A stretch of 64,000 nt of DNA from Laetmonice hystrix (GCA_965235115.1 OZ249436.1:28894001-28958000); one strand, 5' to 3'. Positions 27,977 to 43,640 are shown, counted from the stretch's first letter. Numbers and translations: made by a program. Notes: a model not told the origin generated them from the letters alone.

Positions 27977-28210
27977 CAAACCTTTTTCTGCTCTTTATAA
28001 ATGGAACACCCTCCCAGCTTTTAGGCCAAGTAACTCTGTCGTTTTTGAAATCACCTCATAGATTTTCACATATGACGGTGGTATGGAAGTAGACTATAGC
28101 CTATATTTGTTCGGCCAATTCGTTATCAGCCTTCACTTTCTGCCTGTTCCGGCTCATAATTTAGCCTACTTTTTATATCACTTACGTTGCCATTGCGTTA
28201 GTTGACCTTT

Positions 28211-29260
28211 TGTAAAGTTTAGTGCAGGAGCCACGAGCTTGTTTTCAGTGGTCACCAGTTAGTTGTGTGACAACTAACAAACATACTGCAATTATATTAC
28301 AGTGACACAAAATTTAGAATAACTTAAAGTTACCTTTACCTGGAACTCACCAAGGGCCAAAACAGGAGAGTTCCATCCCGGGCGTGCGTGTGCCCCCAAC
28401 AACAACACAGAGACTGATATGGTGGTGTAGTCAAGTCGAGTCTGTTTTACCTTTATTGCAAGCTGGTATATATACCAAGTTATTGTATAATCACAGTGGA
28501 CTGTAGAATCGCCCTTTGATTCTCACATGGTGTGCTGCATGGACATGGATAATTAGGCCCCGTTCATACAGCGACCATCAGAGCCATCTGGTGGTCTTTT
28601 GGGTTAAGAATATTATAACAAAGTACTGGCGTCGCAGCGCCCTCTATATGATAGTACATACGAGATTGGGTGAACGCAGCCCAAGGCTCACCATCGCCTT
28701 TGCCCGGTCCCCACAGGCCCACCATGACCTTTCCCCGGCGTCCTCAGTATGTATTAAGGGCTGTTCATATTGCAGCCATCAGAGCCACCTGGTGGCCTGA
28801 TACTATATCACTACATTAAAATATATAAGGATAATACAGGCATGGGTATCGTGCGACGATAGTCTGAACGCACCTGGCTACAAGGTTTTCCTGAACCTTG
28901 TACTGCTAATCAGTCATGTGCTGGTCAGTGAACTGGTCAGTGACCCTCTCACTCCTATGATAAGATATTAACATTAACCTCCTGCCAATACAAAACCATT
29001 TTATAGTATAAACCAGACTATAAGACATATTTATATAAGTGCATATTTCTCTGAATACATACCTACGAGTATAATATCTAATATATAGTTTCACATGAAG
29101 GCGGCCAATATAAACTTGTTGTTTGCCATACTACATCATAGTGTAGTTAAACAATGCATAATAAAACATACATAGATCCTAAATAAGTGCCTGATTAATA
29201 TATTATGTCAGGCTAGGAATATATTATAAAATTACAGGCTGTAGGGCTGTATATTTTACA
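28211..29260 (-). repeat. 3' LTR (1050 bp)
   Basis: Direct repeat of 37666-38715 (3 substitutions noticed by eye), TG...CA ends, preceded on the minus strand by a PPT. Confidence 0.98.
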
Positions 29261-29277
29261 TACCTTCCCCACCTTTT
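29261..29277 (-). promoter_or_regulatory. Polypurine tract (second copy at 31351-31367)
   Basis: Minus-strand AAAAGGTGGGGAAGGTA directly abuts the LTR. Confidence 0.9.
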
Positions 29278-29298
29278 AGTTTGATACCAATCTCAAAC

Positions 29299-29669
29299 TT
29301 AAGATAATGATTCTAAAGCCATGGAGGCTGTACGATATGGATATCTGAAATCCATGTCAGTCAACTTAATAGGCGTCTGCACCACATTAAGAGTGTTCGG
29401 TGCAGACGTCGGAATTACATTTGGTACATTAGCCGTATTAACTGGTAATGACTTCTTGGTTCTACACGTAAACCAATAAATGATAAAAATAATAAGTATA
29501 ATAATTAATCCCACTCCGATTCCACCAGTTGGAAGTACAATATGTGGTTTAGGAAGAACCCATCCAGGTGAGTCAGGTTCTCTTTCCTTCCAGTCTTTCA
29601 TGGACAGGAGTGGCACCTCCACTCGTTTGCGAAATGACAGTTTATCGCGCACTTCTGGTGTCACAAATG
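29299..29669 (-). pseudogene. env: env 3' remnant (TM anchor and cytoplasmic tail) in the deleted second unit
   Basis: Matches 31389-31759. Confidence 0.93.
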
Positions 29670-30700
29670 ACTTTCTCAGTCTCCAGTCGCTTCCGGCAGT
29701 CACGAGCAAAATGACCGAGCCCTTGACAGTGATAACATTTTTTGTGGCTTCGACCTTCCATCCCCCTAGTTGATGGGCGTGCTGGTTTGGAGTACCCCGT
29801 CTGCTGTGGTGCTGTCTGTTCATTGACCTCACGTTTCTCGAGGAGCTTGCGGATCGACTTCATTTCACCTTGCACTGTCTTCAATAGTTGGTTGTATTCC
29901 TCCATGGCTCTTTTTTCCACTGTTGGTGGCTTCTTAGTGGGGACCGTCCCTATGTCCATCGGCTCTTCCCCACGGTCTGCGATCTCTGCCAGGCCCACTG
30001 CCCGTGAAGCTGCATTGGCCGAATCTATGGCGCCATCTATGGTGGATGGTCGTTGAAAATGAACTTGCGTTCTTGAGGTCTTATCCCGTAGTCCTTGGAT
30101 GAATTGTTTAATTAGACGTTCCCTTACCAGTGGTAATGCCAACTCCTCCGTGTCATACGCCCTCGTCATTGCTTCCTTATATCGTCTACCATATTCACGG
30201 GTGTCCTCATATGGATTTTGCACTATCTTGTCTACCTTGGCGCGAAGATATTCTTTCTCATCTTCATCCAGGAATGCCTTTATTATGGCGGCCTTTATAT
30301 ATTCCCAGGAACGTTCATCAGGTAGGGATTCAACAATGTAATTTCTCACCATGGTTGCGAGGCTTCCAGTGACGAGGTAGCCCACCATTTCCAGGAGCAA
30401 GTTGTCGGTGGCGTTTACCCATGCACTCGCGTTGTCGATCCCACGGATCCATTCCCGGAGAGCTTCCCTGTTGGTACCATCCGTCACTACCATTCGCTTT
30501 GCATGTTGTTCCAATCTGTGTCGAACTTCCCTGGTGGCTTCCAGATTGAGGCGGTGTTGTTGTAAACGCTGAGACTCGGTTTCGACAGGGGGCTGCCCTT
30601 GCTGTTGTTGTTCCTGCATTTGCTGTTGTTGTAGTTGCTGTTGTTGTAGTTGCTGTTGTTGTAGTTGCTGTTGTTGTAGTTGCTGTTGTTGGTCGTCCAT
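29642..30700 (-). CDS. gag: Second gag copy (352 aa) with a new C-terminus created by the deletion junction
   Basis: Identical to the 36532-37605 protein through the zinc knuckle (CYHCQGLGHFARDCRKRLET), then EKVICDTRSAR*. The frameshift site is lost. Confidence 0.9.
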   Translation of the reverse strand: MDDQQQQLQQQQLQQQQLQQQQLQQQQMQEQQQQGQPPVETESQRLQQHRLNLEATREVRHRLEQHAKRMVVTDGTNREALREWIRGIDNASAWVNATDNLLLEMVGYLVTGSLATMVRNYIVESLPDERSWEYIKAAIIKAFLDEDEKEYLRAKVDKIVQNPYEDTREYGRRYKEAMTRAYDTEELALPLVRERLIKQFIQGLRDKTSRTQVHFQRPSTIDGAIDSANAASRAVGLAEIADRGEEPMDIGTVPTKKPPTVEKRAMEEYNQLLKTVQGEMKSIRKLLEKREVNEQTAPQQTGYSKPARPSTRGMEGRSHKKCYHCQGLGHFARDCRKRLETEKVICDTRSAR

Positions 30701-30741
30701 CTTTGTAGGTTGTGGGTGGTGTCCTCACGGAATTCACAACA

Positions 30742-30759
30742 GTCCCATCGTGGTCACCA
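30742..30759 (-). promoter_or_regulatory. Second (internal) primer-binding site
   Basis: Minus-strand TGGTGACCACGATGGGAC, 1 nt after the middle LTR; identical to 37647-37664. Confidence 0.88.
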
Positions 30760-30760
30760 A

Positions 30761-31350
30761 TGTAAAGTTTAGTGCAGGAGCCACGAGCTTGTTTTCAGTG
30801 GTCACCAGTTAGTTGTGTGACAACTAACAAACATATTGCAATTATATTACAGTGACACAAAATTTAGAATAACTTAAAGTTACCTTTACCTGGAACTCAC
30901 CAAGGGCCAAAACAGGAGAGTTCCATCCCGGGCGTGCGTGTGCCCCCAACAACAACACAGAGACTGATATGGTGGTGTAGCTGAACCTTGTACTGCTAAT
31001 CAGTCATGTGCTGGTCAGTGAACTGGTCAGTGACCCTCTCACTCCTATGATAAGATATTAACATTAACCTCCTGCCAATACAAAACCATTTTATAGTATA
31101 AACCAGACTATAAGACATATTTATATAAGTGCATATTTCTCTGAATACATACCTACGAGTATAATATCTAATATATAGTTTCACATGAAGGCGGCCAATA
31201 TAAACTTGTTGTTTGCCATACTACATCATAGTGTAGTTAAACAATGCATAATAAAACATACATAGATCCTAAATAAGTGCCTGATTAATATATTATGTCA
31301 GGCTAGGAATATATTATAAAATTACAGGCTGTAGGGCTGTATATTTTACA
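30761..31350 (-). repeat. Internal LTR (590 bp) with a 460-bp deletion
   Basis: Same ends as the other LTRs. The junction GGTGTAG|CTGAACC at 30980/30981 removes the equivalent of 28431-28890. Confidence 0.97.
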
Positions 31351-31388
31351 TACCTTCCCCACCTTTTAGTTTGATACCAATCTCAAAC

Positions 31389-33224
31389 TTAAGATAATGA
31401 TTCTAAAGCCATGGAGGCTGTACGATATGGATATCTGAAATCCATGTCAGTCAACTTAATAGGCGTCTGCACCACATTAAGAGTGTTCGGTGCAGACGTC
31501 GGAATTACATTTGGTACATTAGCCGTATTAACTGGTAATGACTTCTTGGTTCTACACGTAAACCAATAAATGATAAAAATAATAAGTATAATAATTAATC
31601 CCACTCCGATTCCACCAGTTGGAAGTACAATATGTGGTTTAGGAAGAACCCATCCAGGTGAGTCAGGTTCTCTTTCCTTCCAGTCTTTCATGGACAGGAG
31701 TGGCACCTCCACTCGTTTGCGAAATGACAGTTTATCGCGCACTTCTGGTGTCACAAATGTTGGCCAGGTGAGATTAAGACGAGGGACTGGACGAAGTACT
31801 GGTGGTCGTACATGCATCGTGCTTTGTCCCAGTTGAAAACCACGAGTTCTCCAATGTGGTCCCTCTAGAATACACCCGCCGGGCACCTTGGTCCGCTGAG
31901 GACCCATCATGTCCCAATAACGTGCCGGCTGGCCTATACACCTTAACACTACCTTAGTAGGAAAATATGTCACAATGACCACAGAGTTCGGGTTATCAGC
32001 GTCTCGGACTATGTCCACGGAGTGATTGGACCGTTTCGAGATTAATATAGTACAATTGGGTGATATCAACCCATTCACCAATGCCTCCTCACAAGAGGTC
32101 ATAAAATATTCCTTCTCCGGTTGACATACCAATGGAGCATGTCCTGCACAAGAATCCGGAGCAAACGACGTGGCAGAGGTCGTGCTGACCACAATATTAT
32201 TTCGACCTGAAAAACTTCGTACATGATCCTCATCATGCGGAACCTTGAAATATTTTAAAGAAAACCGTAAATACTTCCCATTCGTCACTCCTGGGATTAC
32301 CACACGGAAAGCAAACTCTCCATTACGGTTCCATAACAATTCCGTATGGATGAATTGATAGTACCAGTCAAGATTCAATGTTTGATGCCCACGCTGGTTA
32401 AGTTCATTAATAATCTCCATTAAGTACCGTGGAGGTAATACCTCTTTCGTCAACCAACCTTGTTGTAATTGAAAAACCTGTTCGTTAAAAATACGCTTTT
32501 GTGTATGAAAATCCCGAATCGCAAACTCCATCTGTTCAATGGTTTGGTCAATTTGTCTCTGTAAAGTCAATTTTCCCATATATAGCTGCAAAGCCTGAAC
32601 TTTTCGTGCATTCGTACTTGCTAGTGTATAAAGTTTACTTGTTTCAGTTTGCAATTCTCTTAAATCCTGTCTATTTTCTCGAATATATCTCCGCGTTTGA
32701 TTTACAATACTTAACATATGGGAAGCTTCATGGTGAAGGATAGTCATTTTCTGACGAGTTTTGTCCAGAGCTGATTTCAGAATGTTAATATCATCGACGG
32801 TAGCAGTGCCGAACAATGCCTTGCTCAACTTCCCGACAAAGTTAATCAAGCCACGTCTGACTCGAGTGGGGCGACCGGTCGGGGGGGTCACACCACCAAG
32901 CCGGACGCTTGTTCCGACATCGAGATCCCGCCTCTTATCTAACGAATTTAAACGGAAATACCAGTTGGATTTGTCGATAGAAGTCACTTGGGTTTCAGCT
33001 TTAGAAATGGCACGTTTTACATCTGCTGTCCATCCTGAAACGTTCGGACGGAACGGAGGGTGCACCACGATCACAGCTGTCCATAGGGCCGACACGATTC
33101 TTGCTTCTCCCTTCTCCTCTACTAGAACGCCATCTTCTGTAAACAAATCGGCCGTCACTGGTCTCCCCCTGAAGATGAGGTAGAGGACGGTACACCACAG
33201 AAGGCCGCAACCGTAGCGATGCAT
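31389..33224 (-). CDS. env: Envelope glycoprotein, baculovirus-F/errantivirus-type class I fusion protein (611 aa)
   Basis: N-terminal signal-like segment; furin site RVRR followed by fusion peptide GLINFVGKLSKALFGTATVDD; heptad-rich region; Cys-rich region; NxS/T sequons; C-terminal TM IGVGLIIILIIFIIYWF. Lies between pol and the PPT. Confidence 0.93.
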   Translation of the reverse strand: MHRYGCGLLWCTVLYLIFRGRPVTADLFTEDGVLVEEKGEARIVSALWTAVIVVHPPFRPNVSGWTADVKRAISKAETQVTSIDKSNWYFRLNSLDKRRDLDVGTSVRLGGVTPPTGRPTRVRRGLINFVGKLSKALFGTATVDDINILKSALDKTRQKMTILHHEASHMLSIVNQTRRYIRENRQDLRELQTETSKLYTLASTNARKVQALQLYMGKLTLQRQIDQTIEQMEFAIRDFHTQKRIFNEQVFQLQQGWLTKEVLPPRYLMEIINELNQRGHQTLNLDWYYQFIHTELLWNRNGEFAFRVVIPGVTNGKYLRFSLKYFKVPHDEDHVRSFSGRNNIVVSTTSATSFAPDSCAGHAPLVCQPEKEYFMTSCEEALVNGLISPNCTILISKRSNHSVDIVRDADNPNSVVIVTYFPTKVVLRCIGQPARYWDMMGPQRTKVPGGCILEGPHWRTRGFQLGQSTMHVRPPVLRPVPRLNLTWPTFVTPEVRDKLSFRKRVEVPLLSMKDWKEREPDSPGWVLPKPHIVLPTGGIGVGLIIILIIFIIYWFTCRTKKSLPVNTANVPNVIPTSAPNTLNVVQTPIKLTDMDFRYPYRTASMALESLS

Positions 33225-36200
33225 CTTCTTTTTGCTTCAAACTGTTCCTCCGAGCTGGGCCGTTTTCGTGGGCGTAACCTCATGTGGTACTGGGACTTCG
33301 CTGGTACTGGGTTGTGCTCCGAGAACCGGCGTCGTTTTGTAGCTCGCCTCGGATGGTGGATAATGCTATCATCCTCATTGCTGATAGGAACTGAAACATC
33401 AGGTTGTAGGTCATGACCTTGGCCATTGTCTGGTGGCTGGATAAGGACTTGTTTCCTTTGTGTCCGGGTCATACGAGGACGCAGGCCATCCCAGTTCACG
33501 TCAGGGTCGACTAGCCGTACTTTGCATCGGTTCACTGTTCTTCTTTTGTTTTGCGGTCCCACTGCAGTGATAACGGGCCCTTGGATCCTCGTGACGACAT
33601 ACCCAGGATCCCAACTAGGGTCGAGGGAGGCACCTTCATGCACTAGTAACATCACGTGGTCTCCTACTGTGAGGGATCCCGCATTGGCTTGTCTTTGGAG
33701 ACGGTCCCTATTGTACCTGCGGCTTTCTTCGGTACAACGTGCTGCTTCTTTAAATGCCTTACTTAGTTCATCGATTCGAGCGGCAAGGATGTCTGTCTTA
33801 TTGCCCTCGGTTCGCTCGAGGAGCCTCTTGTAGGGCACTGGCGGTGGTCGGCCATACTGTAGGTAGTAAGGTGAGTATCCAGTTACTACGGAAGTACTCA
33901 CCCTGTGTGCCCACAAGGCTGGCCCCAAGCATTCTTCCCACTCGTGACTTCGGGCGTTGACCAGTTTGCGCAACAACTCCTTCAGGGTCCTGTGGAAACG
34001 TTCGATTTTCCCATTAGTTTGTGGGTGATATGGAGTTGTGTGTCTGACCTCTACTCCCAGGCGTTTGAGGTAGCCCACTACTAGATTGTTACGGAACTCT
34101 AAACCACGGTCAGTGATCATCACTTCGGGTGACCCATAGCGAGGGATGTACTCTGATTCTAAGTACTTTAAAACATTTGCCGCGCTCTTCTGAGGGAGTG
34201 GTTTCACTTCAACCCATCCAGTGGCATGGTCGATCACTGTTAACATGTACTTGTTTCCATTTGGTGATGTTGGGAATGGTCCACAGATGTCCATTCCGAC
34301 AACCTGACAGGGGTACTGCGCTATCGGCATGTCCATCGGTGGTGGTGTTTCCGTTGTAGTTTTATTAACCTGGCATTTGGCGCAATGAGATAAGACGTGG
34401 TAGGTATCCCTCCTCTGCTTGGGCCACTTGTATGCTTCTTGGATCCGATATAGCGTCTTCTGCATTCCCTGATGGCCTACTTCTGCATGAGCCCTTCTCA
34501 CCACACGGAAACGTGCACTAGGAGGTAAGACGAGCCGAGGATATTCTGCTTGGCCGGGTGGTGCTTTCAGGGTGTAGAGCAATCCATCATGGATGACATA
34601 ATCGTTGTCACCTTCCTTCCCCTGGAGGTATTCCTCCATGGTTTCTTGCTCCTTACGAACTTCTTCCTTCTCCAGCTCATCGAATTCCCATGGTATGTCT
34701 TCTCCTACGATGGCACCCAGGTTGTGAGCTTGCTCCAGGTTGTCAGTGTGACCTTTATGTGGTTTTATCCTTGATAACATATCGGCACGGATGTTGTTTG
34801 GCCCCTTTCGATATTGAATTGGAGCCCCATATTCTGCAAGTAAGACAGCCCATCGTTGGATCTTGGTGTTGTTGATCTCTGAGAGAAATAACGACTTCAA
34901 TGGCTTATGGTCTGTGAAGATAGTGAACTCTGAAGAATAAAGATAGGGGCGGAGTTTCTTCAAGGCATAGATCACTGCATAGGCCTCCTTTTCGATTGTT
35001 GCCCAACGAAGTTGAGCCCCGGATAGTTGCTTCGAGATATACTGTATTGGACGTTCAACACCATCATCGTCTTCCTGTACTAAAATGGCCCCTATTGCAT
35101 AATCACAGGCATCAGTATAGAGTTTATATGGCTTATTCAACTGTGGATAAGCCATCACACTGTCGGAGGTCAACAGTTCACGCAGGTGCACCCACGCCTC
35201 CTCCTGTTCCTTAGCCCACTTAAATTGCACATTCTTCTTTGTGAGTTGAACGAGGGGGTGAGACACTTTGGCATAGTTAGGAATGCACTGACGATAGTAT
35301 CCAGTCATTCCCAAAAAGGACCGAACACCTTTTACAGTTTGTGGTGCTGCCATCTGTCGGATTGCATTTGTCTTGTCCGGATCTGCACTAATACCGTTGG
35401 GCGTTATGATATATCCCAGCAATCGGAGCTCCTGGGCCCCAATGGTACATTTAGATGGTTTCACTTTCAGACCATATGACTTCAATGCTTCGAGTACTAG
35501 TTTAAGATGCTCCTCATGCTCTTCCTCTGTGCGGCTGAATATAACTACGTCATCAATAAAAACTAACACAAACTGGCCAAGGTAGGGTGCAAGCACCTTG
35601 TTCATTAGCCGTTGAAATACTGATGGTGCATTGGTTAGTCCAAACGGCATGCGTTTAAACTGAAACAACCCTCGATGGCACGCGAAGGCTGTTTTCTCTA
35701 CACTGTTGTCGTCCATCTTGATCTGCCAGTACCCACTTTTAAGATCTAGCGTGCTGAAGATCTTACTACCTGATAAGGTATCAAAAATGTCTTGGATTAA
35801 CGGAAGTGGGTGAGCATCTTTTTTGGTAATCGAGTTTAACTGGCGATAATCCACACAAAAACGCATGGTACCATCCTTTTTAGGCACTAATAGTAGAGGC
35901 GAAGCCCAAGGAGAGCTGCTAGGTTCGATGATGTCTTCACTTAGCATTTTCTCGATCTCTTCGTCTACCACCTTTCGTTTCGCTAATGGGAGCCGATAAA
36001 GTCGCTGCCTAATGGGGGAGTTCTCACCTGTGTCTATGGACATCTCGACTGCATCAGTGCACCCCAAGGCCATTCCTTCGGTGGCGAAGACACTGGGGTA
36101 GGCTTGAATCCACCGATCCATTTCGGAGTACACTGCTGCCACCTGTCTGTCTCCATCTCCTGCGATTCTGTATCTATGTGTGTTTCCTTGGAAGAACACT

Positions 36201-36484
36201 TTCCGTTTCTTGTAGCTAATCTCCGCGTCTAAGGCTTCCAGGATATCAGTGCCGAATAATGCATCGTGTTGTAATTTGTCATTGACATAAAATTCTACGT
36301 TTTTACCATATACAGGTACGACAGTTTTCCCTCTCGTAAGGATGGGCGCACCACCTAGACCTCGGAGCTTCACTCCAGGGGTCGTCAGTGGTTCCCGATG
36401 ACTATTTCGACAAATAGCAATCCACTTATTTGTCCTGATTAAAGATTTGCTGGCACCGGTATCTATCAAAATGTTCATCCTCAC
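33155..36484 (-). CDS. pol: Pol polyprotein (protease, RT, RNase H, integrase); the frame stays open upstream to the frameshift site at ~36535
   Basis: LIDTGAS (PR); SPWASP..VPKKDG..CVDYR.LN, LDLKSGYWQ, MPFGL.NAP and FIDD (RT); TDACDYAIGA, EKE and TDHKPL (RH); H-x4-H...C-x2-C, MDICGP, TDRG.EF and ERFHRTL (IN). Gypsy domain order, no stops. Confidence 0.98.
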   Translation of the reverse strand: MRMNILIDTGASKSLIRTNKWIAICRNSHREPLTTPGVKLRGLGGAPILTRGKTVVPVYGKNVEFYVNDKLQHDALFGTDILEALDAEISYKKRKVFFQGNTHRYRIAGDGDRQVAAVYSEMDRWIQAYPSVFATEGMALGCTDAVEMSIDTGENSPIRQRLYRLPLAKRKVVDEEIEKMLSEDIIEPSSSPWASPLLLVPKKDGTMRFCVDYRQLNSITKKDAHPLPLIQDIFDTLSGSKIFSTLDLKSGYWQIKMDDNSVEKTAFACHRGLFQFKRMPFGLTNAPSVFQRLMNKVLAPYLGQFVLVFIDDVVIFSRTEEEHEEHLKLVLEALKSYGLKVKPSKCTIGAQELRLLGYIITPNGISADPDKTNAIRQMAAPQTVKGVRSFLGMTGYYRQCIPNYAKVSHPLVQLTKKNVQFKWAKEQEEAWVHLRELLTSDSVMAYPQLNKPYKLYTDACDYAIGAILVQEDDDGVERPIQYISKQLSGAQLRWATIEKEAYAVIYALKKLRPYLYSSEFTIFTDHKPLKSLFLSEINNTKIQRWAVLLAEYGAPIQYRKGPNNIRADMLSRIKPHKGHTDNLEQAHNLGAIVGEDIPWEFDELEKEEVRKEQETMEEYLQGKEGDNDYVIHDGLLYTLKAPPGQAEYPRLVLPPSARFRVVRRAHAEVGHQGMQKTLYRIQEAYKWPKQRRDTYHVLSHCAKCQVNKTTTETPPPMDMPIAQYPCQVVGMDICGPFPTSPNGNKYMLTVIDHATGWVEVKPLPQKSAANVLKYLESEYIPRYGSPEVMITDRGLEFRNNLVVGYLKRLGVEVRHTTPYHPQTNGKIERFHRTLKELLRKLVNARSHEWEECLGPALWAHRVSTSVVTGYSPYYLQYGRPPPVPYKRLLERTEGNKTDILAARIDELSKAFKEAARCTEESRRYNRDRLQRQANAGSLTVGDHVMLLVHEGASLDPSWDPGYVVTRIQGPVITAVGPQNKRRTVNRCKVRLVDPDVNWDGLRPRMTRTQRKQVLIQPPDNGQGHDLQPDVSVPISNEDDSIIHHPRRATKRRRFSEHNPVPAKSQYHMRLRPRKRPSSEEQFEAKRRCIATVAAFCGVPSSTSSSGGDQ

Positions 36485-36541
36485 TCCTGCTAATTCAATA
36501 AAGATACATATGCGGTGATCCGGTGCCCGTCTTAGTTTAAA
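36452..36541 (-). promoter_or_regulatory. -1 programmed ribosomal frameshift signal (U UUA AAC plus downstream stem)
   Basis: gag ends GAT TTA AAC TAA. The -1 frame reads KLRRAPDHRICIFIELAGVRMNILIDTG into pol. GGCACCGG starts 7 nt after the heptamer and can pair with CCGGTGCC (plus-strand positions 36520-36527 and 36452-36459). Confidence 0.85.
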
Positions 36542-37605
36542 TCTAAACGCTTCATTTGTGACTCCACAGCAGCCTGCACGGCAGTCTCCAGTCGCTTCCG
36601 GCAGTCACGAGCAAAATGACCGAGCCCTTGACAGTGATAACATTTTTTGTGGCTTCGACCTTCCATCCCCCTAGTTGATGGGCGTGCTGGTTTGGAGTAC
36701 CCCGTCTGCTGTGGTGCTGTCTGTTCATTGACCTCACGTTTCTCGAGGAGCTTGCGGATCGACTTCATTTCACCTTGCACTGTCTTCAATAGTTGGTTGT
36801 ATTCCTCCATGGCTCTTTTTTCCACTGTTGGTGGCTTCTTAGTGGGGACCGTCCCTATGTCCATCGGCTCTTCCCCACGGTCTGCGATCTCTGCCAGGCC
36901 CACTGCCCGTGAAGCTGCATTGGCCGAATCTATGGCGCCATCTATGGTGGATGGTCGTTGAAAATGAACTTGCGTTCTTGAGGTCTTATCCCGTAGTCCT
37001 TGGATGAATTGTTTAATTAGACGTTCCCTTACCAGTGGTAATGCCAACTCCTCCGTGTCATACGCCCTCGTCATTGCTTCCTTATATCGTCTACCATATT
37101 CACGGGTGTCCTCATATGGATTTTGCACTATCTTGTCTACCTTGGCGCGAAGATATTCTTTCTCATCTTCATCCAGGAATGCCTTTATTATGGCGGCCTT
37201 TATATATTCCCAGGAACGTTCATCAGGTAGGGATTCAACAATGTAATTTCTCACCATGGTTGCGAGGCTTCCAGTGACGAGGTAGCCCACCATTTCCAGG
37301 AGCAAGTTGTCGGTGGCGTTTACCCATGCACTCGCGTTGTCGATCCCACGGATCCATTCCCGGAGAGCTTCCCTGTTGGTACCATCCGTCACTACCATTC
37401 GCTTTGCATGTTGTTCCAATCTGTGTCGAACTTCCCTGGTGGCTTCCAGATTGAGGCGGTGTTGTTGTAAACGCTGAGACTCGGTTTCGACAGGGGGCTG
37501 CCCTTGCTGTTGTTGTTCCTGCATTTGCTGTTGTTGTAGTTGCTGTTGTTGTAGTTGCTGTTGTTGTAGTTGCTGTTGTTGTAGTTGCTGTTGTTGGTCG
37601 TCCAT
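36532..37605 (-). CDS. gag: Gag (357 aa) with N-terminal (QQQQL)n tract and one CCHC zinc knuckle
   Basis: First long ORF after the PBS; Q..YE...EY..R major-homology-like segment; EEPMDIG; CX2CX4HX4C. Confidence 0.95.
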   Translation of the reverse strand: MDDQQQQLQQQQLQQQQLQQQQLQQQQMQEQQQQGQPPVETESQRLQQHRLNLEATREVRHRLEQHAKRMVVTDGTNREALREWIRGIDNASAWVNATDNLLLEMVGYLVTGSLATMVRNYIVESLPDERSWEYIKAAIIKAFLDEDEKEYLRAKVDKIVQNPYEDTREYGRRYKEAMTRAYDTEELALPLVRERLIKQFIQGLRDKTSRTQVHFQRPSTIDGAIDSANAASRAVGLAEIADRGEEPMDIGTVPTKKPPTVEKRAMEEYNQLLKTVQGEMKSIRKLLEKREVNEQTAPQQTGYSKPARPSTRGMEGRSHKKCYHCQGLGHFARDCRKRLETAVQAAVESQMKRLDLN

Positions 37606-37646
37606 CTTTGTAGGTTGTGGGTGGTGTCCTCACGGAATTCACAACA

Positions 37647-37664
37647 GTCCCATCGTGGTCACCA
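37647..37664 (-). promoter_or_regulatory. Primer-binding site (most like a tRNA-Arg 3' end; tRNA-Trp is an alternative)
   Basis: TGGTGACCACGATGGGAC, 1 nt downstream of the 5' LTR; TGG pairs with the tRNA CCA. The tRNA identity is from memory. Confidence 0.85.
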
Positions 37665-37665
37665 A

Positions 37666-38715
37666 TGTAAAGTTTAGTGCAGGAGCCACGAGCTTGTTTT
37701 CAGTGGTCACCAGTTAGTTGTGTGACAACTAACAAACATATTGCAATTATATTACAGTGACACAAAATTTAGAATAACTTAAAGTTACCTTTACCTGGAA
37801 CTCACCAAGGGCCAAAACAGGAGAGTTCCATCCCGGGCGTGCGTGTGCCCCCAACAACAACACAGAGACTGATATGGTGGTGTAGTCAAGTCGAGTCTGT
37901 TTTACCTTTATTGCAAGCTGGTATATATACCAAGTTATTGTATAATCACAGTGGACTGTAGAATCGCCCTTTGATTCTCACATGGTGTGCTGCATGGACA
38001 TGGATAATTAGGCCCCGTTCATACAGCGACCATCAGAGCCATCTGGTGGTCTTTTGGGTTAAGAATATTATAACAAAGTACTGGCGTCGCAGCGCCCTCT
38101 ATATGATAGTACATACGAGATTGGGTGAACGCAGCCCAAGGCTCACCATCGCCTTTGCCCGGTCCCCACAGGCCCACCATGACCTTTACCCGGCGTCCTC
38201 AGTATGTATTAAGGGCTATTCATATTGCAGCCATCAGAGCCACCTGGTGGCCTGATACTATATCACTACATTAAAATATATAAGGATAATACAGGCATGG
38301 GTATCGTGCGACGATAGTCTGAACGCACCTGGCTACAAGGTTTTCCTGAACCTTGTACTGCTAATCAGTCATGTGCTGGTCAGTGAACTGGTCAGTGACC
38401 CTCTCACTCCTATGATAAGATATTAACATTAACCTCCTGCCAATACAAAACCATTTTATAGTATAAACCAGACTATAAGACATATTTATATAAGTGCATA
38501 TTTCTCTGAATACATACCTACGAGTATAATATCTAATATATAGTTTCACATGAAGGCGGCCAATATAAACTTGTTGTTTGCCATACTACATCATAGTGTA
38601 GTTAAACAATGCATAATAAAACATACATAGATCCTAAATAAGTGCCTGATTAATATATTATGTCAGGCTAGGAATATATTATAAAATTACAGGCTGTAGG
38701 GCTGTATATTTTACA
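37666..38715 (-). repeat. 5' LTR (1050 bp)
   Basis: Direct repeat of 28211-29260, followed on the minus strand by the PBS and gag. Confidence 0.98.
37907..37929 (-). promoter_or_regulatory. Candidate LTR TATA box and poly(A) signal (3' LTR copy at 28452-28474)
   Basis: Minus-strand TATATATA followed 9 nt later by AATAAA. Confidence 0.6.
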
Positions 38716-38878
38716 CTTTGTTCCACATGTTAAATAGGCCTACAGCTTGTTTCCTGCGATTAGGCCTCGTTACAGTGATATGAATTTTAAAAATAAATTC
38801 TATAGAATCATAAATCTATATACCTAGAAGCCTATACACACCATGGGCCCGTGTGATATGCTCACGGCACTGGCGTTA

Positions 38879-40886: not shown

Positions 40887-43640
40887 TAGTCTAGGCAAAA
40901 CAGGGTTGGTCTGGGAAAAATGTGGTACATAATTTTTTTCAGTGGATTTTAACCCTCTGAGGGGTCCTTATTAAGAATCCGATGGGTGTGGTCGCCACAC
41001 CCTTGGGCATTTTGAGAAATCCAAGATGGCCGCCAAAATGGCTGCCATTTCACTAAAATGGCTATAACTTCCTTTCTATTTGTCACAGAAGGTTCATTTT
41101 TTCACCTATCCCTATGTTTTTGGGGTCAGGCAATCCATTAAAGGTGTTTTTAATTCCAGTAAACAATGACGTCACCGGAAAATCCAAGATGGCCGCCAAG
41201 ATGGCTGCCATTTCACTAAAATGGCTGTAACTTCCTTTCTATTTGTCACAGAAGGTTCATTTTTTCACCTATCCCTATGTTTTTGGGGTCAGGCATTCCA
41301 TTAAAGGTGTTTGTAATTCCATTAAACAATGACGTCACCGGAAAATCCAAGATGGCCGCCAAGATGGCTGCCATTTCACTAAAATGGCTGTAACTTCCTT
41401 TCTATTTGTCACAGAAGGTTCATTTTTTCACCTATCCCTATGTTTTTGGGGTCAGGCAATCCATTAAAGGTGTTTTTGCTTCCATCAAATGATGACATTA
41501 ACCGAAAATCCAACATGGCCGCCAAGATGGCTGCCGTTTCACTGGATATTGGCAGCAGCTAATGGTTGAACCTTGGCTGATGGTGGGGTAAGGGGCAGGG
41601 GCTGGTGGTCGGACCTTGGCAGCTACTGGTGGTCGGACCTTGGCAGCTACTGGTGGTCGGACCTTGGCAGCTGCTGGTGGTCGGACCTTGGCAGCAGCTG
41701 GTGGTCGGACCTTGGCAGCTACTGGTGGTCGGACCTTGGCAGCAGCTGGTGGTCGGACCTTGGCAGCTACTGGTGGTCGGACCTTGGCAGCAGCTGGTGG
41801 TCGGACCTGGGCTGGTGTTGGGGTAAGGGCAGCGGCTGGTGGTCGGACCTGGGCTGGTGGTAGGGTAAGGGCAGCGGCTGGTGGTCGGACCTTGGCTGGT
41901 GGTAGGGTAAGGGCAGCGGCTGGTGGTCAGACCTTGGCTGGTGGTGGGGTATGGGCAGCAGCTGGTGGTTGGACCTTGGCTGGTGGTAGGGGAAGATGTG
42001 GTTTAACCTTGGCGGGTGGTGCAGTATGAAATGGTGTTGGTGTTCAGACCTTTGCAGGGACTGGTGGTCAGACCTTGGCTGGTGATCACTGGTGCTATAT
42101 AGGCAGAGGTTTGTGGTCGGGCCTTGGCTGGTGGTGCGGTATGGGCAGCCCGAGTTGGTGGTCGGACCTTGGCAGTGGCTGGTGGTCGGACCTTGGCAGT
42201 GGCTGGTGGTCGGACCTTGGCAGTGGCTGGTGGCCGGACCTTGGCAAGGGCTGGTGGTCGGACCTTGTCAAGGGCTGGTGGTCGGACCTTGGCAGTGGCT
42301 GGTGGTCGGACCTTGGCAAGGACTGGTGGTCGGACCTTGGCAGTGGCTGGTGGTCGGACCTTGTCAAGGGCTGGTGGTCGGACCTTGGCAGTGGCTGGTG
42401 GTCAGACCTTGGCAGTGGCTGGTGGTCGGACCTTGTCAAGGGCTGGTGGTCGGACCTTGGCAGTGGCTGGTGGTCGGACCTTGGCAAGGGCTGGTGGTCG
42501 GACCTTGGCAAGGGCTGGTGGTCGGACCTTGGCTGATGGTGGGGTAAAGTCAGGGACTGGTGGTCGCACCTTGGTAGTGACTGGTGGTGGGGTATGGGCA
42601 GGGACTGGCAGGGGTCAAACCTTGGCAGAGACTGGTTACCAGATAGTCGGACCATGGCAGGTGGTGGTCGGACCTTGCCATCCAATTGCAGTAGAAGTTG
42701 TCCCAATGATTGGCAATGTATTCAGCAACCCGAAAATTCTCTGGATAGACACCAAATATATATCTCTAGGATAGCCTGACCCCAAAAACATAGAGATAGG
42801 TGCAAAAATGAACCTTTTGTGACGAATAGAAAAAAATTACAGCCATTTCAGTGAAAGGACAGCCATCTTGGCAGCCATGTTGGATAATCGGGTAACGTCA
42901 TCATTTAATGGAATTAAAAACACCTTTCACACTAACCTTCTGTGATGAATAGGAAAGAAGTTACAGCCATTTCAGTGAAACGGCAGCCATCTTGGCGGCC
43001 ATGTTGGATTTTCGGTTAATGTCATCATTTGATGGAAGCAAAAACACCTTTAATGGATTGCCTGACCCCAAAAACATAGGGATAGGTGAAAAAATGAACC
43101 TTCTGTGACAAATAGAAAGGAAGTTACAGCCATTTTAGTGAAATGGCAGCCATCTTGGCGGCCATCTTGGATTTTCCGGTGACGTCATTGTTTAATGGAA
43201 TTAAAAACACCTTTAATGGATTGCCTGACCCCAAAAACATAGGGATAGGTGAAAAAATGAACCTTCTGTGACAAATAGAAAGGAAGTTACAGCCATTTTA
43301 GTGAAATGGCAGCCATCTTGGCGGCCATATTGGATTTTCCGGTGACGTCATTGTTTAATGGAATTAAAAACACCTTTAATGGATTGCCTGCCCCAAAAAA
43401 CATAGGGATGGGTGAAAAAATGAACCTTCTGTGACAAATAGAAAGGAAGTTATAGCCATTTTAGTGAAATGGCAGCCATCTTGGTGGCCATCTTGGATTT
43501 CTCAAAATGCCCAAGGGTGTGGCGACCACACCCATCGGATTCTTAATAAGGACCCCTCAGAGGGTTAAAATCCACTGAAAAAAATTATGTACCACATTTT
43601 TCCCAGACAACCCTAATTTTGGCATTTTTTGCCCGGACTA
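40887..43640. mobile_element. Foldback-type non-autonomous DNA element (Academ-like TAG...CTA ends, TTA TSD) nested in the HINE
   Basis: TTA|TAGTCTAGGCAAAA ... TTTTGCCCGGACTA|TTA. Inverted arms of >650 bp are built from ~162-bp units (AAATCCAAGATGGCCGCC...). The host core repeat resumes after it. Confidence 0.82.
41560..42680. repeat. 24-bp minisatellite (GGCTGGTGGTCGGACCTTGGCAGT variants)
   Basis: Directly visible period-24 repeats, with some longer variant units. Confidence 0.95.

Follow-up and report, generated by a model that had tools for sequence, protein, structure and literature searches.

The window examined here is the whole stretch of 64,000 nucleotides, and it contained an env-carrying LTR retrotransposon on the minus strand. 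The order between the ends of the element was LTR, gag, pol, env, a 590-bp LTR, gag, the tail of env and LTR. The features are given below from the 5' end of the element, with positions counted from the first nucleotide of the window.

38716 to 38719, no strand: target-site duplication (TSD) CTTT on the 5' LTR side
37666 to 38715, minus: 5' LTR, 1050 bp, TGTAAA...TTTACA
37907 to 37912, minus: sole AATAAA of the 5' LTR, at LTR nt 804, with a TATA-like TATATATA at LTR nt 787-794
37646 to 37664, minus: primer binding site (PBS), 19 of 19 nt complementary to the 3' end plus CCA of the host tRNA-Arg(UCG)
37628 to 37633, minus: candidate splice donor, GTGAGG directly 3' of the PBS, judged from sequence
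36532 to 37605, minus: gag, 357 aa, ATG at 37605, poly-Q N-terminus, Retrotrans_gag and CCHC zinc knuckle (Pfam)
36535 to 36541, minus: slippery heptamer T TTA AAC immediately before the gag stop, putative frameshift site
33155 to 36604, minus: pol frame, 1149 aa from stop to stop, open, in the -1 frame relative to gag
31389 to 33224, minus: env, 611 aa, predicted F-type class I fusion protein (Pfam, profile and fold matches)
33150 to 33224, minus: predicted signal peptide, residues 1-25, V-T-A then DLF (hydropathy and alignment only)
32796 to 32864, minus: furin-type site RVRR (121-124) and fusion-peptide-like GLINFVGKLSKALFGTATV (125-143), from alignment
31554 to 31610, minus: transmembrane anchor, residues 539-557, leaving a tail of 54 aa (hydropathy)
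31353 to 31367, minus: polypurine tract (PPT) ahead of the middle LTR
30761 to 31350, minus: middle LTR, 590 bp, LTR nt 1-370 joined bluntly to nt 831-1050 at 30980/30981
29261 to 30760, minus: gag-only unit between the outer LTRs
29677 to 30760, minus: repeat of the PBS (30741-30759) and of gag, with 100% identity to the first copies
29670 to 29676, minus: 7-nt filler at the junction of gag and env tail, absent elsewhere in the element
29261 to 29669, minus: duplicate of the env tail (codons 489-611) with a second PPT (29263-29277), 100% identical to the first
28211 to 29260, minus: outer 3' LTR, 1050 bp, AATAAA at 28452-28457, 3 mismatches to the 5' LTR
28207 to 28210, no strand: TSD CTTT on the 3' LTR side

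In Pol, the protease (DTG) was followed by RT (FIDD) and a single RNase H, and a bridge of roughly 95 aa led from there to the HHCC motif of the integrase, in which a GPY/F-like motif was also seen. The catalytic residues were intact, namely DTG, FIDD, the acidic residues of RNase H, HHCC and D772-D832-E868. Neither a chromodomain nor a second RNase H was matched by Pfam in Pol, and the bridge region was judged from its sequence. The TG...CA ends of the LTRs, the short TSD, the PBS, the PPT and the PR-RT-RH-IN order are features of Ty3/gypsy elements, and the Pfam matches Retrotrans_gag, RT_RNaseH and Integrase_H2C2 in gag and pol fit this group. The gypsy context and the open state of all reading frames, both claimed in the original prediction, were borne out by these data. 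The heptamer at the end of gag and the -1 frame of pol together fit a programmed frameshift; the heptamer was kept in the relatives on contigs C12 and C3, and others had G GGA AAC at or near the site. Both full-length LTRs carried a single AATAAA behind a TATA-like box. AATAAA was located 109-334 nt from the 3' end in five related LTRs, and none occurred in the sixth stretch examined (L088). The divergence of the outer LTRs was 0.29% (3/1050). If the rate is assumed to be 2e-9 to 1e-8 per site and year, these three differences place the insertion at roughly 0.15-0.7 million years ago. Hence, the youth of the element and the count of about three LTR differences were predicted correctly, although the middle LTR and the gag-only unit between the outer LTRs were missing from that description.

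Other repeats were also observed in the window, in which no Rfam family was found. Positions 1-25620 were occupied by a G-skewed tandem array with a unit of about 2215 bp and at least 12 copies, which ended 2.6 kb from the element. These copies were mostly 98-100% identical over 300-nt blocks and had no Rfam match. A foldback-like element at 40896-43621 had 649-bp inverted arms (98%) made of 163-bp repeats, and its centre was a 24-bp minisatellite of about 40 copies.

The env ORF was translated into 611 aa with zero internal stops. The N-terminus of Env was hydrophobic and ended in V-T-A, and the DLF start after it was common to close relatives. The cleavage motif read RVRR/GLINFVGKLSKALFGT and was the sole R-x-K/R-R in the protein. 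The most hydrophobic 19-mer corresponded to residues 539-557, with a mean of 2.75, and five N-glycosylation sequons and six ectodomain cysteines were present. The intact F-type envelope was thus recovered as originally described, with an open frame, a signal-like N-terminus, the furin and fusion-peptide motif and a TM anchor. Env matched Pfam Baculo_F with an E value of 7.5e-6 (25.3 bits against a cut-off of 24.1); this single-sequence match was weak and local (residues 119-196), and Baculo_F was also matched in 12 of 13 aligned Env relatives. A full HMMER scan yielded 771 relatives at E <= 0.001, the best of which was 41% identical and unnamed, whereas a word-index protein search gave just four unnamed relatives. 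The ectodomain (residues 26-535) was aligned with 10 relatives from the same genome and 116 of 151 database proteins chosen for length, giving 127 sequences. Three cysteines were invariant in this alignment, and both furin arginines, G131, F138, G139, a WYY motif and three further cysteines were at least 90% conserved. When the 127-sequence profile was compared with the PDB, 9w4d, a 'fusion protein', was the best match (E 1e-13), followed by 9w4c (E 1e-11). Both matches spanned the two halves of the ectodomain, and the lower PDB matches were coiled coils. We take 9w4d to be a baculovirus F protein. The single-sequence search of the PDB with Env found no fusion protein, and a 13-sequence profile reached E 0.04 at best. 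The homology to F proteins nevertheless held for both Baculo_F, above its cut-off, and the larger profile.

The fold of the ectodomain was predicted with AlphaFold2 from the alignment, with a pLDDT of 86.1 and a pTM of 0.73; the low-confidence part was mainly the surroundings of the cleavage loop. A single-sequence model with a pLDDT of 39 was discarded. In the Foldseek search of BFVD, baculovirus F proteins were at ranks 1, 3 and 4 (E 1.5e-19 to 1.9e-17, TMq 0.48-0.50). RSV F was on top in the PDB (E 1.5e-12, TMq 0.38), and the TM-scores of the model against solved F proteins were only about 0.4. According to VIA-align, the model and hMPV F were aligned over 332 residues with a Z score of 13.3 and an rmsd of 5.1, and all 50 listed rows were F proteins in this re-examination of the matches of Foldseek. 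The structure prediction therefore agreed with the proposed class, as the model resembled baculovirus and pneumovirus F.

The copies of the element were searched in the assembly (627 Mb, 35 contigs). Its LTR was present at this locus and on C3 only, and no solo LTRs were found in the assembly. The C3 copy, at 97.2% identity, had a disrupted pol and an env frame interrupted by a stop behind codon 576, and its two LTRs were 96.4% alike. The family therefore fell outside the multi-copy rule (98% identity over 98% of the ORFs), because its sole other copy had this lower identity and was broken. A sister family with 78% nucleotide and 84% Env identity had copies on C7 (in tandem), C8 and C12. The C7 copies (C7:22112733-22130246, L029-L031) formed a two-unit tandem with a shared middle LTR; the units were 99.96% identical and carried an identical pol break. 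Genome-wide, at least 78 env matches were found over many contigs (72 of 421 candidates scored), and 36 of the 78 were free of stops, with an open frame of 550 aa or more. The two LTRs of many elements in the genome were 99.5-100% identical, and the TSDs of 4 bp included ATAT, ATGT and ACGT. Thirteen copies chosen for open pol (>1000 aa) and env represented eight lineages, and all splits were shared between their pol and env trees, the env tree being made by a quick method that gave a long-branch warning.

Shortened derivatives of these elements were also observed. A non-autonomous family of about 3.66 kb, found by DNA search and not via env, had at least six copies (L051, L052, L053 with two inverted copies, L054 and L055; C4, C5, C11, C11 and C8, respectively) and was akin to the C12 sister family. 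Its copies were mostly 98-99% alike, and the LTR pairs of four young copies were 99.3-99.9% identical. It retained only the PBS region, the env tail together with the PPT, and a piece of env, 130 nt long, that surrounds the furin site; the remainder was unrelated and included a decayed protease-like frame. Two multi-copy deletion families of 2.6 kb (L080, L081, L090) and 3.35 kb (L067, L078) had common breakpoints and LTR pairs that were about 99-100% identical. Their open env frames (505 aa and 563-565 aa, respectively) had no signal peptide. The retention of env in these two families is a biased observation because they were found through the env search. An origin of deleted derivatives as copies of spliced env RNA was rejected where checked, as the junctions of L067/L078 and L060 were not GT-AG.

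The selection on env was evaluated against the C12 member of the sister family (L038). According to Nei-Gojobori counts, dN was 0.086, dS was 0.51 and dN/dS was 0.17, with the lowest dN/dS (0.06) at codons 125-280, which comprise the fusion peptide and the first heptad region. Env is of the F type and env is under purifying selection in the lineage; both statements were well supported because profile, fold matches and dN/dS agreed. A fusion activity of Env is predicted. In the furin-site stretch of env, synonymous changes were found at 5 of 43 codons compared with 130 of 449 elsewhere (Fisher p 0.013), and a synonymous window as low as this one turned up in 40% of shuffles; synonymous constraint on this stretch was only suggestive. 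Among codons for identical residues, 27% of 492 differed synonymously in env, whereas 52% of 903 differed in pol (RT dS 1.6) and 44% of 278 differed in gag. The step in divergence between the two elements fell at the end of pol. Because env was far less diverged than pol and gag between the sister families, these values suggest an exchange of env between them or an extra constraint on env.

The selection on env fits a fusion function, by which infection and interference are not separable. The element may instead copy itself inside germ cells, with an Env that no longer serves cell-to-cell infection and an env that is open just from its youth or has another role, such as a block of superinfection. 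The low copy number is in keeping with such a life cycle, as are the young derivatives L067, L078, L080, L081 and L090, which keep a long open env without a signal peptide. Hence, an open env frame alone shows nothing. Moreover, the transmission mechanism is stated to be unknown outside Drosophila (Chary & Hayashi, PMC13524379). However, a dN/dS of 0.17 at a dS of 0.5, with its minimum over the fusion peptide and the first heptad region, argues against it, and the furin site, fusion peptide and ectodomain cysteines were kept across lineages at 22-40% identity. Copying restricted to germ cells was hence regarded as the strongest competitor, with a real but minor chance of being correct, and an Env that serves infection was preferred.

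The expression of env was considered from its position relative to pol. In all 10 elements examined, env was in the -1 frame over the end of pol. In the window element, 70 nt separated the env ATG from the end of the pol stop, and this distance was 34-88 nt in 9 of the 10. The ATG overlapped a basic, Cys-ending motif of the Pol tail in nine elements (EEQ-x-x-AKRR-C or QQAKR-x-RQS-C); at window positions 33155-33265, it shared bases with AKRR-C of the Pol frame. In the tenth element (L062 family), the pol stop and env start overlapped as TAATG. A donor-like GTRAG was found about 10 nt past the PBS in the window family and its two closest families and was not there in the other five of eight leaders. 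No good splice acceptor and no pyrimidine tract were found before the env ATG. A subgenomic RNA produced by splicing is the probable source of Env, by analogy with the insect env-F genes, which are spliced (PMC12992720). Ribosomes could alternatively terminate and re-initiate at the pol/env overlap without splicing, for which the frame overlap in every element, the TAATG of the L062 family and the want of a clear acceptor would speak. Nonetheless, the position of the window env ATG, 70 nt ahead of the end of the pol stop, would be reachable by frameshifted ribosomes only. The donor-like site close after the PBS, although confined to the three closest families among the eight leaders, and the splicing of env-F in insects likewise weigh against re-initiation. 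It was considered rather unlikely, and splicing was ranked above it as the better guess.

The arrangement between the outer LTRs differed from that of a simple element. The middle LTR was without the 460 bp that carry the TATA-like box and AATAAA. In the gag-only unit, gag broke off shortly upstream of the frameshift site and the sequence ran on from env codon 489, and its gag ORF (29642-30700) encoded a 352-aa Gag with 341 shared residues, 11 new residues and no frameshift site. The 2083 duplicated bases had no differences from their sources, compared with 3/1050 between the LTRs (P of about 0.003 if equally old). Furthermore, the last 220 bp of the middle LTR shared a private base of the 5' LTR, and the outer 3' LTR and the C3 copy had the other base. 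On the grounds of the identical duplicates and this private base, we infer that the rearrangement is younger than the insertion. The simplest explanation would be that the template was switched twice during a single event of replication or repair. The junction of gag and env tail was found once in the assembly, which ruled out an amplified gag-only family, and the two junctions of the rearrangement, both unique in the assembly, were likewise not GT-AG, so that an origin from spliced RNA was rejected. The uniqueness of the junctions and the complete identity of the duplicated pieces would also be expected if the middle LTR and gag-only unit were an assembly artefact and the true locus were a simple LTR-gag-pol-env-LTR. 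Such an error was judged improbable: the two separate junctions were precise to the base, one blunt and one with the 7-nt filler, and resembled products of repair or template switching, and exact tandem and deleted copies were common among the relatives in the genome, such as the C7 tandem. A genuine rearrangement is assumed in what follows.

The host was identified from the mitochondrial contig and the telomere. The contig (16.8 kb) was read by table 5, and AAA stood at conserved Lys positions, which excluded the echinoderm/flatworm code. All 12 long mitochondrial frames tested were on one strand, in the order nad1-nad3-nad2-cox1-cox2-cox3-trnQ-nad6-cob-atp6-nad5-nad4L-nad4; this order is of the annelid type. 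Eleven of the 12 frames were named by Pfam and nad6 was named by position, and atp8 and the rRNAs were not annotated. Annelid mitochondrial genes are usually on one strand and include the region cox2-atp8-cox3-nad6-cytb-atp6-nad5 (PMC7682095), and the gene order is conserved in Pleistoannelida (PMC4866719, PMC13602327). Chromosome 1 started with TTAGGG-type repeats. Based on the mitochondrial code, gene order and telomere, the host was assigned to the annelids with high confidence, and the non-insect host that had been proposed from the surrounding repeats was upheld. An echinoderm host was ruled out by the mitochondrial code and gene order; it would have been new because the published survey found no such elements there. 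The mitochondrial contig opened with about four copies of a repeat of about 512 bp in a non-coding region (C35:1-2100, L025). At C7:27.26-27.54 Mb, at least 23 exact matches to the 3' end of tRNA-Arg(UCG) were observed, many of them about 7.5 kb apart, and both matches tested were tRNA genes. Nothing more than an intact ORF and a motif common to insect Env could be adduced for a fusogen domesticated by the host or for contamination with an insect errantivirus. Either was hardly credible in view of an env inside a complete element with a TSD, a locus 28.9 Mb into a 73.8-Mb chromosome-scale contig, a PBS that matches the own tRNA of the host and 78 env matches spread on many contigs.

The locus was most convincingly explained as a young Ty3/gypsy insertion, most likely in an annelid, with open gag, pol and env; its Env is, by prediction, a class I fusion protein of the F type that furin cleaves. 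In this explanation, in which we have high though not complete confidence, the 5' LTR would drive the RNA, ribosomes would shift to the -1 frame at U UUA AAC to make Gag-Pol, tRNA-Arg(UCG) would prime reverse transcription and integration would yield the 4-bp duplications. Env, probably translated from the spliced RNA with its own ATG and signal peptide, would be cut at RVRR, by which the fusion peptide is exposed, and would let particles from one cell enter another, likely germ cells. After insertion, this copy would have gained the duplication and deletion that left a dead middle LTR and the gag-only unit. Because the rearrangement removed the poly(A) signal right after env, the RNA would continue beyond env as far as the outer LTR and would contain the primer site and the polypurine tract twice each. 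All three proteins can still be encoded by the window copy, but it would probably serve poorly as a template for exact copying. The description as active and infectious was therefore plausible for the lineage and doubtful for this locus; activity here was weakened by the presence of two insertions only, the lack of solo LTRs in the assembly, the broken C3 copy and the rearrangement that removed the poly(A) signal.

A broader reading was also considered, in which eight or more infectious errantivirus lineages are active side by side in the worm, exchange their env genes and sustain helper-dependent satellites through an RNA signal inside env. The swapping would follow from the env dS of 0.5 against 1.6 for pol between the sister families. 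This reading is speculative and was thought more likely wrong than right by a wide margin. If it were true, the 130-nt furin-site stretch retained by the satellite would mark a packaging or copying RNA signal hidden in env, and the annelid would be a testable non-insect model of soma-to-germline infection. Alone, the element is a modest addition, namely one more non-insect retrotransposon with an F-type env, with fold and selection evidence, and it may itself be a row of the published survey. The element bears on the question of whether Env proteins confer infection in animals other than Drosophila, and on the way in which they are produced. The handles offered by this genome are many young lineages with open ORFs, the conserved overlap of env start and Pol tail, a candidate splice donor, a probable exchange of env and deletion derivatives from which the RNA stretches that persist after the loss of coding can be read.

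The element was compared with known systems. In the survey of Chary & Hayashi (eLife 2026, PMC13524379), 1512 intact env-carrying Ty3/gypsy elements were reported across animals, absent only from echinoderms and sponges, and 1386 of them were multi-copy at 98% identity over 98%, which is usual and not required. 'Annelida' occurs 148 times in Supplementary file 1, two per row in the rows examined, corresponding to about 74 annelid elements; 14 of the first 15 of these rows are ENV_F. Nine of the 10 element rows found with an Arg(UCG/UCU) label are polychaete ENV_F, and the summary sheet totals 14 (PMC13524379). Hence, the surprise implied by the original prediction did not survive, as F-type env Ty3/gypsy elements are already catalogued across animals, annelids included. 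The words 'frameshift', 'splic', 'overlap', 'deletion' and 'non-autonomous' do not occur in the main text of this paper, and to that extent the expression signals and derivatives described here are not covered by it. In a literature search on non-autonomous errantivirus derivatives, nothing on annelids was found among the papers listed.

The window element resembled the annelid 'ancient errantiviruses' of that survey (PMC13524379) in its GAG-POL-ENV order, open ORFs, LTRs and annelid host, in its F-type Env with furin site, fusion peptide, signal and TM, and in its Arg(UCG) primer, short bridge after RNase H and an env tree that tracks the pol tree. The hallmark of this group is a single RNase H with a C-terminal 'mini' domain in the bridge (PMC13524379). 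The window element differed in that it was not multi-copy by the 98%/98% rule and had an extra deleted LTR and a gag-only unit. On each feature tested save multi-copy status, it is an errantivirus by the operational definition. It shares a Ty3/gypsy pol and env-F with the Drosophila errantiviruses and insect ERVs (gypsy, ZAM, Idefix; PMC12992720), including the signal peptide, furin site, fusion peptide, conserved cysteines, TM and tail of the envelope. However, insect errantiviruses have Ser, Lys or Leu primers (PMC13524379) and a duplicated pseudo-RNase H, whereas tRNA-Arg(UCG), one RNase H match and an annelid host were found here. The main env exon of insects is spliced to upstream exons (PMC12992720), whereas in the window element the ATG and the signal peptide belong to env itself and lie within the 3' end of pol. 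Infectivity was demonstrated for Drosophila errantiviruses, whereas the window element is known from its sequence.

The predicted fold, the furin site followed by the fusion peptide, the predicted heptad helices and the cysteine-rich C-terminal half were like those of baculovirus F (Ld130-type) and pneumovirus/paramyxovirus F. Unlike baculovirus and pneumovirus F, which were only 8-15% identical to it, Env is encoded by a retrotransposon. Lokiretroviruses of fish and lampreys are LTR retroelements with an env related to F proteins and a retrovirus-side pol with two RNase H domains. In contrast to these, the window element had one gypsy-type RT_RNaseH (Pfam), a short bridge and an invertebrate host.
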